DNA of 45,720 bases, from positions 1-45,720 of the forward strand of contig JBGQHA010000001.1 of the NCBI GenBank assembly GCA_041497735.1, in the 5' to 3' direction. This DNA comes from Dehalococcoidia bacterium. GTDB lineage: Bacteria; Chloroflexota; Dehalococcoidia; DSTF01; RBG-16-68-14. The notes under the pieces are model-generated. The model searched no databases and was not told the origin of the DNA. It was given only the letters and a program-made list of their open reading frames with translations. Within the stretch, counting starts at the first letter, position 1. Each line of letters opens with the position of its first letter. The position numbers and the translations under genes were made by a program. Below, piece after piece: positions 10,508 through 37,818 of this stretch.

Positions 10508-10586
10508 CTTCGGGCTCCTGAGGCCGTCTCGTAGCATCAGGGTAGAAGCCGCGTTATGTTAGTGACGCCCCGCTGGAGCGCAGACC

Positions 10587-27481: not shown

Positions 27482-28729
27482 CTACACGTGCTCCTCTTGT
27501 CGCGGCCGTTCCTCGGCCAGCGGCAACGGCGCGTCACGGACGCTCCTATCGGCGAGCGACGCGTAGAGGCGCGCCGTCTGCGCAGCGATGGCATCCCAGC
27601 TCAGGTCGCGCGCGAGAGCAGCAGAGCCGGCCTCGAGCTTGGCGCGGAACGCGCCGTCCGTCAGGACCGCGACGAGCGCTGCCGCGAGCTGCTCGACGTT
27701 GCCGGGCGAGACGACGGCGCGCTCGTCGGCGACCAGCTCCGGCAGACCACCGGCATCCGTCACGACGAGCGCCTTCTCGTGATAGAGGGCGCTCGCGCCG
27801 ACTGCGCTCTGCGCATCGAAGCGAAGGTAGGGCAGCGCCACAACGTCCGCCGCGGCGAAGAGCGCCCCGACCTGTGTCGCGGGCACAAACCCCAGATGCG
27901 TGTCGACGACGTCAACGAGATCGAGATCATCGATCAGGCGCTCGTAGCGGGACCAATCCTCCCACGGCTTGCCGGCGATCACCAGGCGCGCTTCCGGAAC
28001 GCGCTCACGCACGCGTGCGAAGGCCTGCAGCAGGACGTCGACGCCCTTGTAGGGCCGGATATTGCCGAAGCAGAGCACGATCTTGTCGTCCGGGGCCATG
28101 CGCAACACGCGGCGGGCGCCGGCGAGCGAAAGTCGATCGCCGGATGAGGCCAGGATGCCGAGTGGGATCACCTCGATCGGCTTGGCCGCTGGTACGAGCT
28201 CCGCCAGCCGATCGCGGCTGCGCGCATCGTGGACGACGTAGGTATCGGCCAGGCGCAGCACGAGGCGGTTGAGGACGCGCTGCCAGCGGCCGGCCTCGTG
28301 CGGCTCGACGTTGTGGACGGTGATGACCACGCGCCGGCGGCGCAGCCGCGCCAGCGACAGCACGGCGATGTACTGCGGCGCGAGGATGAAGCTCCACCAC
28401 TGCGCGTGCACGACCTGCCCCTTGAGCGTGAGGCCCGCCCAGAGCCACGAGAACGGGTTCCACCAGCGGAGCATGGTCCGGACGCGGACGTTGGGGAACT
28501 GCGGCCGCCGCGCTGTCGAATCCTGCAGCTCGCCGCCGGGGTAGAGACGGCGCGGGTACAGGCTGGCGAAGTCGATCACCTCGAGCGAGACGCCGGGCGT
28601 GCTCGCGAGGCCGGCGACGAGATGCGCCGTGTAATCGGCGACGCCTTTGTGCGGCGGCAGTGTGCTGATGAGGGTGACGCGGACAGCCCCGTTGCCGCCG
28701 CCTTCAGGACGCTGGGAACCGGCGGTCAT
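27482..28729 (-). CDS. GT4 family glycosyltransferase
   Basis: The ATG overlaps the upstream stop (ATGA at 28726-28729). VTLISTLPPHKGVADYTAHL ... CFGNIRPYKGVDVLLQAF ... ALPYLRFDAQSAVGASALYHEKALVVTDAGGLPELV. Confidence 0.8.
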   Translation of the reverse strand: MTAGSQRPEGGGNGAVRVTLISTLPPHKGVADYTAHLVAGLASTPGVSLEVIDFASLYPRRLYPGGELQDSTARRPQFPNVRVRTMLRWWNPFSWLWAGLTLKGQVVHAQWWSFILAPQYIAVLSLARLRRRRVVITVHNVEPHEAGRWQRVLNRLVLRLADTYVVHDARSRDRLAELVPAAKPIEVIPLGILASSGDRLSLAGARRVLRMAPDDKIVLCFGNIRPYKGVDVLLQAFARVRERVPEARLVIAGKPWEDWSRYERLIDDLDLVDVVDTHLGFVPATQVGALFAAADVVALPYLRFDAQSAVGASALYHEKALVVTDAGGLPELVADERAVVSPGNVEQLAAALVAVLTDGAFRAKLEAGSAALARDLSWDAIAAQTARLYASLADRSVRDAPLPLAEERPRQEEHV

Positions 28730-29775
28730 TGACGTCCTGCCGGAACCCGCTCCTTCTCCGTCGGGGTAATGGTGGGTGCGGCCGTGGTGCCGTTGCTCGA
28801 GAACGCGAGATCCTCACGCGTGAGGTCGTCGTAATAGCGGCGCTTCTCGATGAAGAGGATCTGCTCCTGCGTCTCACGGACACGGCCGAGCATATCGGCG
28901 AGGAGTGCGGTGAGGAAGGAAAACGCGCCCAGGATGAGGAAGATTGCGCCGAGCGTGGTGAACGAGGTATACGGCCTGGTTCGCCCGAAGATGATGAAGT
29001 TGATCAGGACGACCATCTCTGTAGCCGTGCCGAGCAGCGTGAGCAGGATGCCGATGGAGCCGAAGAAGGTCAGCGGCAGCCTGTCGCGGACGGCGCGCGC
29101 CAGGATGGTGAACGTGCGCAGGCCGTAGCGCAGCACGCTGTGGGCGATGCGCGATCGGCCGTGCTCGCGCACGCCGCGGATCGCGATCGGCACTTCTTCC
29201 ATCGTGAGCGCCTTGCGGTGCAGGTCGACGAGGGTTTCCTGCGTGTAGGTGTAGGCACCGAAGATGTTGATCTTGAGCGCGCAGCTTCGCGAGTAGGCGC
29301 GGAAGCCGCAGGCGACGTCGGTGAAGGGGCGGCCGCAGGCCCAGCCGGTCAGCCTGGCCATCATGAGGTTTCCCCAGCGCTTCAGGCCGGGCATCTCCGG
29401 CAGGAGCTCTGGGTCAGAAAAGCGAGTCGCCGTCACGAAGTCGGCGCGGCCCGAAAGGATCGGCTCGATCAGCTTGGCGATCTCCTCGGGCGGGTGCTGG
29501 CCGTCCGCGTCGAGGTTGACGATCACGTCGGCGCCTCGGCGCAGCGCGGCATCGATGCCGTTCGCAAACGCGCGTCCGAGGCCGAGGTTCGTATTGTGGG
29601 AGATGACGTGCGCGCCGTGGTCGAGCGCCACGCGCGGCGTGCCGTCTATCGAGCCGTCGTCGACGACGACAGTCTCGATCTCATCGATGCCGGAGATGTG
29701 CGCGGGGATACGTTCGAGGACGCCGGACAGCGACCGTTCTTCGTTGAGCGCCGGGATGATGACGACAAGCTTCAT
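28726..29775 (-). CDS. GT2 family polyprenyl-phosphate sugar synthase type (DPM1/GtrB/GacI-like) with C-terminal TM helices
   Basis: Start MKLVVIIPALNEE at 29775 with GGAG 8 nt upstream; the track ORF extends to 29844. VVVDDGSIDGT, NLDADGQHPPEEI. Two C-terminal hydrophobic helices (FFGSIGILLTLLG..., LGAIFLILGAFSFLTALLADML). Confidence 0.8.
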   Translation of the reverse strand: MKLVVIIPALNEERSLSGVLERIPAHISGIDEIETVVVDDGSIDGTPRVALDHGAHVISHNTNLGLGRAFANGIDAALRRGADVIVNLDADGQHPPEEIAKLIEPILSGRADFVTATRFSDPELLPEMPGLKRWGNLMMARLTGWACGRPFTDVACGFRAYSRSCALKINIFGAYTYTQETLVDLHRKALTMEEVPIAIRGVREHGRSRIAHSVLRYGLRTFTILARAVRDRLPLTFFGSIGILLTLLGTATEMVVLINFIIFGRTRPYTSFTTLGAIFLILGAFSFLTALLADMLGRVRETQEQILFIEKRRYYDDLTREDLAFSSNGTTAAPTITPTEKERVPAGRQ

Positions 29776-29928
29776 GATCCGTTCTCCGCCTTGAAAACGG
29801 GGCCGCTCTGGCGCGTCCAGGCCAGGGCGCTCAAGATACAACACAGCCAGGTCCTCCTGACCCAGATTCGCGAATAGTGAAATTCGCTATGAAGTGCCCA
29901 CCGACTCCATAACGATGGCGGGGAGGCT

Positions 29929-29937
29929 AGTATAACA
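29929..29937 (-). promoter_or_regulatory. Extended -10 element TGTTATACT for the 10-gene minus-strand operon
   Basis: Reverse complement of AGTATAACA at 29929-29937, about 150 nt upstream of the ATG at 29775. Confidence 0.4.
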
Positions 29938-29942
29938 GAAGC

Positions 29943-29971
29943 TTGACAGGCCCTGCTACTTATGTTAGAAC
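29943..29971 (+). promoter_or_regulatory. Sigma-70-type promoter TTGACA-N17-(TGt)TAGAAC for the dehydrogenase operon
   Basis: Perfect -35 TTGACA at 29943-29948, a 17-nt spacer ending in TGT, and -10 TAGAAC at 29966-29971. Confidence 0.45.
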
Positions 29972-29981
29972 GGGCTGCTCC

Positions 29982-29997
29982 GGGTCAACGTTGACCC
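29982..29997. promoter_or_regulatory. 16-bp perfect palindrome GGGTCAACGTTGACCC just downstream of the predicted -10
   Basis: Read directly; it is self-complementary over all 16 positions. Its position suits an operator or the first leader hairpin. Confidence 0.4.
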
Positions 29998-30013
29998 CGA
30001 ATCGCGAACTGAA

Positions 30014-30045
30014 CCCCGCCGTCCGCGGCGGGGTGTGTCTTTTGT
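30014..30045 (+). terminator. Intrinsic-terminator-like hairpin and U tract inside the 5' leader of the dehydrogenase operon (possible attenuator)
   Basis: CCCCGCCG-TCCG-CGGCGGGG (30014-30033) followed by TGTGTCTTTTGT. A second GACGGCGGGG (30048-30057) can pair with the same 5' arm. Confidence 0.45.
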
Positions 30046-30087
30046 AAGACGGCGGGGACCCGACTCGTTAGGTTGCTGAGGGAACAC

Positions 30088-31359
30088 GTGGGGACGCTTA
30101 CCGTCTCAGCGGATAGTGTTTCGTTCCGCATCCGAAGCCGCGAGGCAACGGTCGCGGTGGTGGGACTTGGCGTCGTCGGCTTGGCCCAGGCCGGCGTCCT
30201 GATGCGCGCTGGTTTTCGCGTCCTGGGCATCGATGTCAGCTCTGAGTGTGTGGCAGCGCTCTCGAACGGCGCGCGGCCGGCCGACATCGACGACTTCTGG
30301 AAGCTCAGTGATCGCTTCGAAAGCCTCAGTGAGGCCGACTGCGTCATCATCGCCGCTCCGACGAGCTACCAGCCGGACGGTACCCCCGACGTGAGCGCCG
30401 TGGCGGAGGCCGCGCGCGACATCGGCCGGAACCTGCACCCGGGCATGCTCGTCGTGCTCGAGAGCACCGTCCCGCCCGGTACCACGCGCGAGGTAGTCCT
30501 GCCGGCGCTCGAGGCGTCCGGCCTGCGCGCGGGACGCGACTTCTTCCTCGCCTTCTCGCCGGAGCGTATCGACCCGGGCAGCACAGCCCACCCGGTGGAA
30601 TCGATCCCGAAGCTCGTCGGCGGCATCACGCCACAGTGCGCCGCCGTTGCGTCCGAGCTGTACCGCTTCGTTGCGCCGCAGGTGCACACCGTCTCCAGTC
30701 CGGAGATCGCCGAGCTGGCGAAGGTCTTCGAGAACACGTTCCGGTTCGTCAACATCAGCCTCGCCAACGAGCTGGCGCTCATGTGCGGCGCGATGGGCCT
30801 CGATGTGCAAGAGGTGATCGACGCGGCGAGCACGAAGCCGTTCGCGTTCATGGCGCACCGGCCCGGCCCGGGCGTGGGTGGCCGCTGCATCCCGATGGCG
30901 CCGCATTACCTGTCGTGGGCCGCGGAGCGCGCCGGCGCGGAGCTGCCGGTCACGGCTGCGGCGATCGAGCTGAACGATGCGCTCCCGCGCCGCGTGGCGC
31001 AGCGCGCGCTGGCGCTCTTGGGCGACAAGACCTCGCCCGCCGTGCTGCTGCTCGGCGTCGCGTACAAGCCGAATATCGATGACACGCGCGGCTCCGTCGC
31101 GCTCGCGGTCGCAGCGGAGCTGCTGAGTTCCGGCGCACGGGTGCTCTATCACGACCCGCACGTGCCGTCTCTGACAATCGATGGGGAGACACTGCAATCG
31201 CAGCCGCTCGACGCGCGCCTGCTCGAGCGCGTGGACGCGGCGATCCTGCTCTGTCCCCACACGGCGATCGATCTCGATCTCGTCGCCCGCCATACGCGCG
31301 TCATCCTCGATCCTACAGGCCGCCTCCGCCCGGACGCAGAGCGCGTCTTCGGCGTGTAG
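30088..31359 (+). CDS. Nucleotide-sugar dehydrogenase (UDP-glucose/GDP-mannose dehydrogenase family, WecC/TviB-like)
   Basis: VAVVGLGVVGLAQAG (GxGxxG); catalytic-Cys region GPGVGGRCIPMAPHYL; C-terminal LLLGVAYKPNIDDTRGS. GTG 30088 behind GAGGGA is chosen; the track start is a TTG at 30073. The start is uncertain. Confidence 0.9.
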   Translation: MGTLTVSADSVSFRIRSREATVAVVGLGVVGLAQAGVLMRAGFRVLGIDVSSECVAALSNGARPADIDDFWKLSDRFESLSEADCVIIAAPTSYQPDGTPDVSAVAEAARDIGRNLHPGMLVVLESTVPPGTTREVVLPALEASGLRAGRDFFLAFSPERIDPGSTAHPVESIPKLVGGITPQCAAVASELYRFVAPQVHTVSSPEIAELAKVFENTFRFVNISLANELALMCGAMGLDVQEVIDAASTKPFAFMAHRPGPGVGGRCIPMAPHYLSWAAERAGAELPVTAAAIELNDALPRRVAQRALALLGDKTSPAVLLLGVAYKPNIDDTRGSVALAVAAELLSSGARVLYHDPHVPSLTIDGETLQSQPLDARLLERVDAAILLCPHTAIDLDLVARHTRVILDPTGRLRPDAERVFGV

Positions 31360-31371
31360 GCAGGCCCTCAC

Positions 31372-32391
31372 ATGCCTCCCGGCCCTCGCGACCTGCGCAC
31401 GGCGAAGCCGAAGATCGTCGTTATCGGCGGCGGCACCGGATCTCACATCATCCTCACCGGCCTCAAGCGGCACGACGTTGATATCACCGCGGTGGTCGCG
31501 ATGACCGATCGGGGCGGCAGCTCCGGCCGCTTGCGCGACGAGTTCGGGCACCTGCCGCCGGGCGACATCCGCCAGTGCCTAGCAGCCCTGGCGCCCGAAG
31601 AGCACGCGACGTTGCTGCTGCGACAGCTCTTCGGCTACCGCTTCGCCAAAGGCTCCGGCTTGAACGGCCACAGCTTCGGCAACTTGTTCATCACCGCACT
31701 TGTCGAGATCACGGGCAGCATCGACCGCGCAATCGAGGAGGCGGGCAACATCCTCGGCATCCGCGGCCGTGTGCTGCCGGTCACGCTCTCGAAGACCGAC
31801 CTCTGCGCGCGCCTCACCGACGGCACCGTGATCGTGGGCGAGGACCGGCTCGATGTGCGGCGCGAGAAAGTGGACGTGCCGATCGATTACGTGTACCTCG
31901 ATCCGCATGCGTACGTGAACCCGGCTGCGGCGCAGGCGATCCGCGAGGCAGACGTCGTCGTCCTCGGCCCGGGCGATCTCTATACGAGCATCATCGCCAA
32001 CCTGGCTGTCGATGGCGTGCCGGAGGCCGTCCGCTCGTCGAAGGGACGCAAAGTCTTCGCCTGTAACTTGGCGACCAAGCGCGGTGAGTCGGACGGCTTT
32101 GCGGCGTCGGACTTCGTGCGCGTCGTGCGGGAGTATCTGGGCGCAGAGGACGCGCTCGATACGGTGCTGATCAACTCGACGCCGGTGCCGCCACGCGTGC
32201 GGCAGCGCTATGAGTCCGAAGGTTCCTTCGTCGTCGAGGCGGACATCGAGGAGTGCCGCCGGCTCGTCCCGCACGTCGTCAGCCTGCCGCTCGCCAGCGC
32301 GGGAACGTACCTCCGCCACGACCCGGAGCGGCTGGCGCAGGCGGTCCTGGCTGTCGCTGAGGGCAAGTTAGCGGCCGCGGCGAACCAGTAG
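31372..32391 (+). CDS. YvcK / CofD-like (UPF0052, 2-phospho-L-lactate transferase superfamily) protein
   Basis: KIVVIGGGTGSHIILTGLKRHDVDITAVVAMTDRGGSSGRLRDEFGHLPPGDIRQCLAALA matches the family signature. 12-nt gap after the dehydrogenase gene. Confidence 0.85.
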   Translation: MPPGPRDLRTAKPKIVVIGGGTGSHIILTGLKRHDVDITAVVAMTDRGGSSGRLRDEFGHLPPGDIRQCLAALAPEEHATLLLRQLFGYRFAKGSGLNGHSFGNLFITALVEITGSIDRAIEEAGNILGIRGRVLPVTLSKTDLCARLTDGTVIVGEDRLDVRREKVDVPIDYVYLDPHAYVNPAAAQAIREADVVVLGPGDLYTSIIANLAVDGVPEAVRSSKGRKVFACNLATKRGESDGFAASDFVRVVREYLGAEDALDTVLINSTPVPPRVRQRYESEGSFVVEADIEECRRLVPHVVSLPLASAGTYLRHDPERLAQAVLAVAEGKLAAAANQ

Positions 32392-36763: not shown

Positions 36764-36837
36764 GCGGATAAGACAGGTGAGGCGCCGGTGCCTGCGCGGC
36801 TGTGGACGCGCAGCGCGGCGACGAGGTGAGGGCGGAC

Positions 36838-37818
36838 ATGGCTGAGTGGTCGTTCCTCGTTCCGCCCGGCATCAGCGTCACGCTGCGCGCCTCGAAGCGG
36901 CCGGCGCTGCTCGCCCGCTGCCTCGGCAACGAGGTCGCGCCGCACGTTGTACCCTCCCTCCTCTTGGAGTTGGGGACTGGCGAGCAGACGGATCAGGACG
37001 CGCAAGGCCGTTACAAGGGCGTCCCGTGGCGCTGCGGCGTGACGGCGCGACCCGATGGCCGGCTCGCGCTCTCCTGGCGCAGCCCGCTCCTGCGCGAGTA
37101 TCTCGCGCTGCACATCGCGCTGCTGCCGGCGCTCCGGCGCTTGCTCCTCCAGCGGGACGTCGCGCTGATCACGGGCGCGGCGTTCGCATCCGGCGGCGAT
37201 GCCACGGTGCTGGCCGGCGAGACCGGCTCGGGCAAGACGGCGCTGCTGCTGGCGGCGCTCGGGTCCGGCGCGCGTCTCGTAGGCGATGAGTACATCGGCG
37301 TTTCGGCGACAGGTGTTGTGACGCCCGTGCTGCGCGTCATCGCTTTACGGAGCGCGGCGCTCGGCGCTGTCCCTCAGCTCGGGCAACGTTTGTCTGCGCG
37401 CCGGCGGCTCGAGTTGCGGACAGCGACGACGGCAAGGCTGTTGACCGGCAGGCGTCTCGACCCGCTGGTACACGTTTCGCCGGATGAGCTCGGCATCGAG
37501 GGCGGTGCAACCGGCAGTGCGCTGTCACGGGTCGTCTGGCTCGAACGCGGCGATCGATCGGAACAGCGCAACGAAACCAGGCGCGTAGAGGACGTGATCG
37601 AGGCCCTCGCGCGCGCCGCTGCGCGGCACGACGACGTCTATAGCGTGCCCGCCGCGTTGCGAAGCGACGAGTCTGCCGCCGCGCGCTGGCGCGACGTGCT
37701 CGCGTCTGGCCTGCGCAATGTGCGCTGCCAGCGGCTCGCGCTTCCCGCCGGCCCGCTGCCGGCCGACATGCTGCGCCAGCTCATCGACGCTGAGCCCGTC
37801 GCGGAGCACACAGCGTGA
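36838..37818 (+). CDS. HprK-related P-loop kinase-like protein (HPr kinase C-terminal domain fold)
   Basis: LITGAAFASGGDATVLAGETGSGKTALLLAALGSGARLVGDEYIGV matches the HprK C-domain pattern (GxSGxGKS/T ... G..L..D). ATG 36838 behind GAGGG is chosen; the track start is a GTG at 36802. Confidence 0.65.
   Translation: MAEWSFLVPPGISVTLRASKRPALLARCLGNEVAPHVVPSLLLELGTGEQTDQDAQGRYKGVPWRCGVTARPDGRLALSWRSPLLREYLALHIALLPALRRLLLQRDVALITGAAFASGGDATVLAGETGSGKTALLLAALGSGARLVGDEYIGVSATGVVTPVLRVIALRSAALGAVPQLGQRLSARRRLELRTATTARLLTGRRLDPLVHVSPDELGIEGGATGSALSRVVWLERGDRSEQRNETRRVEDVIEALARAAARHDDVYSVPAALRSDESAAARWRDVLASGLRNVRCQRLALPAGPLPADMLRQLIDAEPVAEHTA

Follow-up and report, generated by a model that had tools for sequence, protein, structure and literature searches.

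Conserved back-to-back promoters and a putative leader terminator between two divergent glycan-biosynthesis operons of a Dehalococcoidia bacterium

Background

The trp, pyr and T-box leaders and the riboswitch platforms place a promoter, a structured leader and a GC-rich hairpin with a U-tract before the first gene of a biosynthetic operon, and expression requires read-through. The same parts, with a likely need for read-through, are seen in the region considered here, a 312-bp gap (29776-30087) that separates two divergent operons, both devoted to cell-envelope sugar or glycan biosynthesis, in the metagenome-assembled genome (2.84 Mb, 65.7% G+C) of a Dehalococcoidia bacterium (assembly GCA_041497735.1). 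The window, that is, the whole stretch of DNA analyzed, comprises the first 45,720 nucleotides of contig JBGQHA010000001.1, and all coordinates refer to it. We know of almost no experimental work on gene control in uncultured Dehalococcoidia. As judged from comparison with related loci, the gap appears to be a conserved control region of a fairly ordinary kind, shared by the two operons, and the leader of the rightward operon carries a hairpin with a U-rich tail that we read as an intrinsic terminator.

Several described leaders resemble this arrangement in part. In the Bacillus subtilis trp leader, transcription attenuation is combined with a hairpin that blocks the Shine-Dalgarno (SD) sequence of trpE; there, as here, a segment downstream of the terminator can enter alternative pairings that are relevant only in the read-through RNA. 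In RfaH/ops (JUMPStart) leaders, once the polymerase has escaped the promoter, a short conserved G-rich element acts on it during elongation, and RfaH works against Rho-dependent polarity rather than against a hairpin terminator in the leader, which sets it apart from the present locus. A short conserved G-rich element also acts on the elongating polymerase after escape in the UpxY polysaccharide leaders of Bacteroides, and both the RfaH and the UpxY systems share with this locus a long 5' leader of an envelope-polysaccharide operon (UpxY: PMC11685472). In the LoaP-dependent dfn and mln leaders of Bacillus velezensis, a factor recruited by a hairpin suppresses a NusA-dependent leader terminator without an alternative RNA fold (PMC12691694), and the order of parts, namely a small 5' hairpin, an intrinsic terminator and a very long biosynthetic operon, is the one found here.

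Results and discussion

Conservation of the gap

The comparison set consisted of 13 syntenic loci, taken from one relative genome (G002) and several metagenomes, and all 13 retain a GT2 glycosyltransferase gene divergent from a dehydrogenase gene and a YvcK-like gene. They were sorted into three divergence groups spanning 58-96% dehydrogenase amino-acid identity: group 1 (78-96%; G002, L130-L134, L137 and L138), group 2 (about 60%; L139-L141 and L143) and group 3 (58%; L144-L149). A protein search of metagenomes yielded the graded series of orthologous dehydrogenases, on contigs that retain the divergent gene pair. A DNA search of 60 related genomes found the region in G002 only, and scanning genome and metagenome collections for exact patterns added nothing beyond G002 and one contig that was in the set before. 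The region is single-copy in its genome; a repeat element was considered and rejected, the short matches elsewhere being chance ones inside coding sequence.

G002 and the window genome are 93.2% identical over 9.5 kb, and the longest run without a difference in this alignment (152 nt, 29931-30082) is the rightward promoter and leader. Identity to the group-1 relatives was then tabulated by segment for the dehydrogenase gene and the gap. Third codon positions of the dehydrogenase gene were 59-65% identical and first and second positions 88-91%. The promoter core reached 83-87%, the leftward ribosome-binding region 85-94%, and the 75 nt from the terminator hairpin to the rightward ribosome-binding site 88-92%, on a par with codon positions 1 and 2. 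The 5' hairpin P1 and the linker behind it were the least conserved part of the rightward leader (54-62%, the level of third codon positions), and the middle of the gap, including the palindrome ATTCGCGAAT, was the least conserved stretch of all (27-59%). A model's earlier annotation of these letters, made without database searches (hereafter the sequence-only reading), had named the region the regulatory hub of the locus. All the motifs that it listed were recovered at their positions when recomputed, and the excess of the promoter core and the hairpin-to-SD segment over third codon positions agrees with its view, as do the conservation of the upstream regions in three groups and the covariation of pairs in P1 and in the terminator hairpin P2. 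The case rests on this comparison with relatives because neither promoter is picked up by a consensus scan and the leader as a whole folds with an ordinary energy.

Back-to-back promoters

On the plus strand, the -35 hexamer TTGACA (29943-29948), a 17-nt spacer and the extended -10 element TGtTAGAAC (29963-29971) form the rightward promoter (29943..29971). TTGACA and TTATGT are invariant across all three groups with a spacer of 17-18 nt, and the -10 region of relatives reads TGnTAGAAC, TAGAAA or TAGTTT. On the minus strand, the extended -10 element TGTTATACT (29937-29929) of the leftward promoter gives way to TGTTATAAT in G002 and, among the other relatives, to TGATATAAT or TGATATACT, TGnTATAMT being kept in groups 1 and 2. 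A simple sigma-70 scan called neither promoter, both falling below the consensus threshold, as the -10 TAGAAC is without T6, and the promoter calls therefore rest on conservation and not on consensus score. What marks a sigma-70-type promoter, hexamers with a 16-18-nt spacer or an extended -10 element conserved in orthologs, was found in both directions, the two promoters being retained in groups 1 and 2 and TTGACA with TTATGT in group 3. The proposal of back-to-back promoters is thus borne out by conservation in all three groups of relatives, and we infer two sigma-70-type promoters with extended -10 elements whose predicted starts lie about 56 bp apart, the rightward start being placed near 29978. 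The promoter-associated motif TTATGTTAG occurs only five times in the genome, once at 10554-10562, which is 25 nt before an acyltransferase frame (start 10587).

Two hairpins in the rightward leader

The predicted rightward leader would be about 110 nt long and would comprise P1, a variable linker, P2 with its U-rich tract and a highly conserved segment reaching to the ribosome-binding site. In P2 (30013..30034, plus strand), arm A CCCCGCCG and arm B CGGCGGGG enclose a TCCG loop (30014-30033); with an added A-U pair the stem has 9 bp, eight of them G-C, with a folding energy of -19.7 kcal/mol, and is followed by GTGTCTTTTGTAA. The U-rich tail is GUGUCUUUUGUAA (30035..30047), and the 12 nt after the stem (GUGUCUUUUGUA) contain 7 U; over the 11 distinct leaders tested, the count in these 12 positions is 4-7 U, where about 2 are expected at 65.7% G+C if A and T are equally frequent. 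Each of the 14 loci has P2, placed 62-73 nt downstream of the -35 hexamer, with energies of -15 to -21 kcal/mol. Hairpin and tail sit about 53 nt before the start codon, with 49-66 nt given for the conserved hairpin. The closing pair covaries (A-U in 5, G-C in 4 and G-U in 1), the loop ranges from 4 to 8 nt and is of a different size in group 2, and in group 3 the invariant 5' arm CCCCGCC pairs with GGUGGGG through a G·U pair, plus extra pairs. The G·U pair and the covarying closing pair indicate that P2 is maintained as plus-strand RNA.

Among terminator-like sites in 40 kb of the window P2 ranks first, and a local terminator scan gave five overlapping calls where 0.8 were expected; the fold energy of the whole leader was not unusual (z = -0.78). 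A covariance model of the leader, run against 401 class-level genomes, matched the full leader only in its own genome, the G002 leader having been found separately. It also gave hairpin-plus-U-tract matches in two further Dehalococcoidia genomes, both at unrelated loci, one right after the stop codon of an upstream co-directional gene and the other intergenic beside the 3' end of a DHDPS gene, so such hairpins occur in this class where terminators are expected. From P2 to the GTG start codon no credible promoter hexamers were seen, and no plus-strand gene lies upstream for a terminator to serve; on the evidence as a whole, P2 is read as an intrinsic terminator inside the leader. Its stable GC-rich hairpin is what such a terminator calls for, and its U-rich tract is present though moderate, with the proximal part interrupted. 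The terminator that the sequence-only reading placed in the plus-strand leader has its counterparts, hairpin and U-rich tail, in relatives of all three groups.

P1 (29979..30000, plus strand) is built on the perfect palindrome GGGTCAACGTTGACCC (29982-29997), starting 10 nt downstream of the -10 element. A perfect 16-bp palindrome is by itself unremarkable in a genome of 65.7% G+C: 210 perfect palindromes of at least 16 bp occur in 2.84 Mb, about one per 13.5 kb, three of them in this contig, and the sequence of this one is unique in the genome. The five outer pairs of the core are paired in all 7 sequences and only these 5 bp are retained; two sequences have C-G in place of U-A at one pair, so that the half-sites GGGTC/GACCC switch jointly to GGGCC/GGCCC, at spacings of 6, 4, 5 or 5 nt. 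The loops, of 4-6 nt, are unrelated in sequence (ACGU, GCUG, UCGCU, UCGUU and AAGCC). A dimeric repressor operator, the role in which the palindrome might bind a protein, was rejected: half-site spacing that varies from 4 to 6 nt around an outer 5 bp, together with the compensatory change, speaks for an RNA hairpin, and the alignment indicates that P1 is maintained at the RNA level. Its position at about +4 of the predicted transcript would fit a 5'-terminal stem-loop. A target of the ANTAR dual-hexaloop or RAT-like antiterminator type was also rejected, as the P1 loops are not conserved hexaloops and no second hairpin overlaps the terminator.

Leader attenuation as the preferred reading

If P2 works as its anatomy suggests, most RNA polymerases would stop at about 30041-30046 and leave an RNA of about 65 nt, and the dehydrogenase operon would depend on read-through for its expression. 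The level of read-through might be set by a trans-acting factor on the elongation complex or the leader RNA, or by the leakiness of the imperfect U-tract. To a leader attenuator of this kind, built on an intrinsic terminator, we assign about an even chance. The arm B' downstream of the tail would act only after read-through, when it may remodel the leader of the full-length mRNA or serve as a recognition sequence.

Several points weigh against an attenuator. Both the start site and the terminated product are predicted. The U-tract is broken in its proximal part (GUGUCUUUU), with no more than 4 U in 12 in group 3, and thus the efficiency of termination could be low. Covariation in P2 is restricted to one pair, the remaining pairs being invariant, and the stem with 45 nt downstream is near-invariant, which is beyond the need of a plain terminator and implies a further constraint. 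No antiterminator, leader peptide upstream of the terminator or aptamer was found, nor a regulator gene in the 45.7-kb window, which makes a regulated attenuator hypothetical.

Unlike in the trp, pyr, T-box and riboswitch attenuators, there is here no antiterminator upstream of or overlapping the terminator, the competing arm lying only downstream of the U-tract, and no leader peptide before the terminator, aptamer or specifier structure. In contrast to the LoaP systems, the locus belongs to Chloroflexota, and P1, though it precedes the terminator, has a variable loop and is not a UNCG-tetraloop hairpin. No specialized NusG paralog of the RfaH or LoaP type turned up in the four genomes searched (G000, G002, G001 and G004), each with a single PF02357 match and hence one NusG-family gene; these genomes are incomplete (G000 82%, G002 93%), which makes the absence strong but not absolute. 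The ops consensus GGCGGTAG is absent, and only GGCGG is common to it and GGCGGGGA; where an RfaH/ops system has ops GGCGGTAGnnTG in the non-template strand together with RfaH, this leader has GGCGGGGT and GGCGGGGA.

Should termination be confirmed, leader attenuation would govern polysaccharide operons in a lineage without NusG paralogs, pointing to a read-through factor; otherwise the finding is that of an ordinary control region. The locus makes a compact, conserved template, about 200 bp in length, with two promoters, several covarying leader hairpins and a leader terminator ahead of a conserved envelope-glycan pathway, and the strong constraint on the 75 nt after the terminator stem makes this the part most likely to hold something new.

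Reading frames and translational coupling

The ribosome-binding site GAGGGA (30078-30083) and the GTG start at 30088 (together 30078..30090, plus strand) are marked by the substitution pattern, changes from 30088 on being mainly third-position and synonymous. Ahead of them lies a candidate, unproven upstream frame of 14 codons, MSFVRRRGPDSLGC (30035..30079, plus strand), which starts one base after the terminator stem. According to a second reading, which we consider rather unlikely, termination is not regulated at all: the hairpins would be elements of mRNA stability or processing and of translation initiation, and the 14-codon frame would be translationally coupled to the dehydrogenase. Its TGA stop codon lies 8 nt ahead of the GTG and overlaps the dehydrogenase SD sequence. 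All seven complete group-1 leaders keep the frame open, with a start alternating between ATG and GTG, and four of the six changes in codons 1-9, counted from the aligned sequences, are silent or preserve the start. Group 3 has a comparable frame, which opens directly behind the hairpin and overlaps the main start codon (ATGGTAG). Predicted hairpins around the SD sequence and start (30075-30110) and after the start are paired in all sequences, and 5'-proximal hairpins such as P1 are known stabilizers of mRNA.

Coupling meets difficulties in the frame itself, which is without a usable SD sequence (the sole purine-rich run is the 3' arm of P2, inside the stem), uses five rare AT-rich codons in a genome of 66% GC, is missing from two of the four group-2 leaders and is frameshifted in L138. 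The identity of the segment (88-92%) is moreover far above that of third codon positions (59-65%), so coding alone does not explain its conservation, and a U-rich tail conserved in three groups points to termination.

A frame that crosses the terminator (TTG 29991 to TAA 30047) has its start codon in only three of the six distinct group-1 leaders tested, and no conserved reading frame was found ahead of the terminator. A leader-peptide attenuator would need such a frame, short and closing before or inside the terminator region, along with alternative 2:3 and 3:4 pairings, and the only consistently open one begins after the terminator.

The downstream arm B'

B' is GACGGCGGGG (30048-30057, plus strand), a copy of the 3' arm of P2 that is perfectly complementary to 30014-30023; it also supplies the 5' side of a predicted local hairpin P4 (30048..30069; GACG...CGUU), which belongs to the RNAalifold consensus and is kept in all ten sequences. 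A cis-acting switch could be built on these parts, in which the arm at 30014-30023 pairs with 30026-30033 (terminator on) or with 30048-30057 (terminator off) and a signal or ligand chooses, in the manner of a riboswitch expression platform; we think this very unlikely. The two pairings are both perfect and mutually exclusive, and both are possible in every group-1 sequence (93.7% and 97.1% of cells paired). B' itself is non-random: A:B' is significant against shuffles in eight of the ten distinct group-1 and group-2 leaders (all of group 1, L139 and L143), and the competitor is the strongest of its kind among the genome's 215 terminator-like hairpins (-18.9 kcal/mol against a median of -8.6). 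In group 3 the arrangement is mirrored, with a downstream copy of the 5' arm instead of B', and the invariance of the stem is what a three-way pairing constraint would lead one to expect. The second, mutually exclusive arm described in the sequence-only reading is therefore real and not a chance complement.

A switching role for it is another matter. B' begins 14 nt after the stem, 3' of the U-tract, and is thus absent from the RNA when termination is decided, so it is not a classical antiterminator. A:B is favoured over A:B' by 0.4-8 kcal/mol, and L140 and L141 have lost A:B' although they retain the terminator. Nor is a translational switch indicated, which was rejected because the predicted accessibility of the SD sequence is the same with A:B or A:B' forced; in this the locus differs from the B. 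subtilis trp leader, where moreover TRAP chooses by binding (G/U)AG repeats, which do not occur here. No aptamer-like core was found upstream of the terminator, where P1 loop and linker, at 54-62% identity, are the least conserved part of the leader. Rfam 15 gave no match at gathering score in the whole window, and permissive thresholds also gave nothing, in line with the earlier remark that no known riboswitch class was recognized. The best sub-threshold matches in 29400-30500, to the rnk leader (22.8 against 55 bits) and F6 (21.1 against 46), were both driven by the terminator hairpin. A riboswitch would have a conserved effector domain upstream and an antiterminator formed before the 3' arm, and neither is seen. 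Of the description of the leader as an attenuator or riboswitch-like element, the conserved leader terminator stands and the switch does not, as B' lies beyond the U-tract and no aptamer-like core precedes it.

GGCGGGG boxes and control at the DNA level

The heptamer GGCGGGG is present in the gap in three plus-strand copies (Box1 at 29918-29924, B at 30027-30033 and B' at 30051-30057) and one inverted copy (30014-30020). Box1 in its extended form is TAACGATGGCGGGGA (29910..29924, plus strand), a direct repeat of the B' region TAAGACGGCGGGGA (30045-30058); its form in the leftward RNA is CCCCGCCAUCGUUA, at about +1 of the predicted transcript, and AACGAYGGCGGGG is invariant in groups 1 and 2. 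The copies of this repeat thus stand at the predicted leftward start and just past the rightward terminator, and they are conserved in groups 1 and 2.

The heptamer might bind a transcription factor serving both promoters, by roadblock or looping, a reading to which we attach little probability. Four copies fall within 145 bp and flank both core promoters, their sequence is invariant rather than covarying, Box1 and B' are both missing in group 3, and the extended motif of the repeat, GAYGGCGGGGA, is rare in the genome (11 occurrences on both strands, 5.7 Mb, two of them in this gap). Set against this, P2 behaves as RNA, with its G·U pair and covarying closing pair, and its loop of 4-8 nt alters the spacing of the half-sites; no other promoter in the genome has the motif nearby, and the window holds no regulator gene. 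DNA looping between Box1 and B' was rejected, their distance varying from 129 to 137 bp without conservation of phase.

Two further readings

A combination of boxes and RNA, in which invariant C-boxes and G-boxes form a terminator-first RNA device coupling both halves of the pathway, has in our view a very small probability. CCCCGCC stands in the 5' arm of the terminator and at the 5' end of the leftward leader, and GGCGGGG stands twice in the rightward leader; after read-through, B' would replace the 3' arm of the terminator or pair in trans with the 5' end of the divergent mRNA, or else one factor might read all boxes. If true, this would be a type of control not described for divergent operons. 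Pairing of the divergent leaders in trans was tried and rejected, since the duplexes of -14 to -27 kcal/mol were equalled by composition-matched shuffles (p = 0.05-0.7).

That the element is instead the gene of a trans-acting small non-coding RNA of about 65 nt (29978 to about 30043) is extremely unlikely: a strong conserved promoter, a conserved terminator within 65 nt, two hairpins between them and the weak Rfam near-misses to F6 and the rnk leader (E = 0.3-0.6), which are terminator-containing small RNAs, would suit it, but its single-stranded body (P1 loop and linker), where a seed is expected, is least conserved, the downstream operon would be left without a promoter of its own, and the element always sits with this single gene pair, the full leader being matched only in its own genome among the 401 class genomes and, found separately, in G002.

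The leftward leader

In the leftward leader, the RNAalifold consensus has four conserved hairpins on the minus strand, three of them with compensatory changes. The first, mH1 (29884..29915, 12 bp), lies near the 5' end of the predicted transcript and shows G-C to A-U and C-G to U-A changes. In mH2 (29847..29865), which has a purine-rich loop (AGGAG), four of six pairs are changed on both sides with pairing kept; it too was called terminator-like in the window, and its U-rich tail is not conserved. A compensatory U-A to C-G pair is found in mH3 (29803..29830). The last, mH4 (CCGUUUUC-AAGGCG-GAGAACGG, 29779..29800), encloses the GGAG ribosome-binding site of the GT2 gene, and its eight pairs are nearly invariant in seven sequences. 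The sequence-only reading had also pointed to the palindrome ATTCGCGAAT (29866-29875) with a further ATTCGC half-site (29882-29887). Both are present (29866..29887), and both are missing from the relatives (L130-L133 and L137 among them) save a 98%-identical one; lying in the least conserved stretch of the gap, they are probably not functional.

Flanking genes

The first gene of the leftward operon (28726..29775, minus strand; Pfam PF00535) encodes a GT2 glycosyltransferase of the polyprenyl-phosphate sugar synthase type (AglJ/PpgS/ArnC-like), with AglJ and PpgS as the best NCBIfam matches, both under the equivalog cut-offs. It is syntenic in every related locus and leads ten glycan-assembly genes. 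Rightward, the first gene (30088..31359, plus strand; PF03721, PF00984 and PF03720) encodes a nucleotide-sugar dehydrogenase of the UDP-ManNAc/UDP-GlcNAc dehydrogenase type that exceeds the TIGR03026 cut-off, and is followed by a YvcK/CofD-related gene, a DUF6541 membrane protein gene and GT2 genes. Among the genes of the window are glycosyltransferases, methyltransferases, acyltransferases, an ABC transporter, a flippase and YvcK-like and HprK-like proteins. The YvcK-family protein, of the UDP-GlcNAc-binding type and above the cut-off of TIGR01826, is encoded at 31372-32391, inside the glycan operon, which also includes a weak match to HprK-related kinase A at 36802-37818. In two relatives (L131 6447-7520 and L132 6543-7616) a minus-strand methyltransferase gene stands between the YvcK-like and DUF6541 genes, and the rightward operon is thus interrupted there.

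Long perfect palindromes form families over many contigs of G000, for example GTAGGGGCGGTTCGCGAACCGCCCCTAC, GGGCGCATGGCCATGCGCCC and GTAGGGGCGTTCAATTGAACGCCCCTAC (C2:19137-19164, C3:26793-26826, C97:7778-7805, C18:7157-7176 and C83:4956-4983), and look like repeated hairpins of the REP type.

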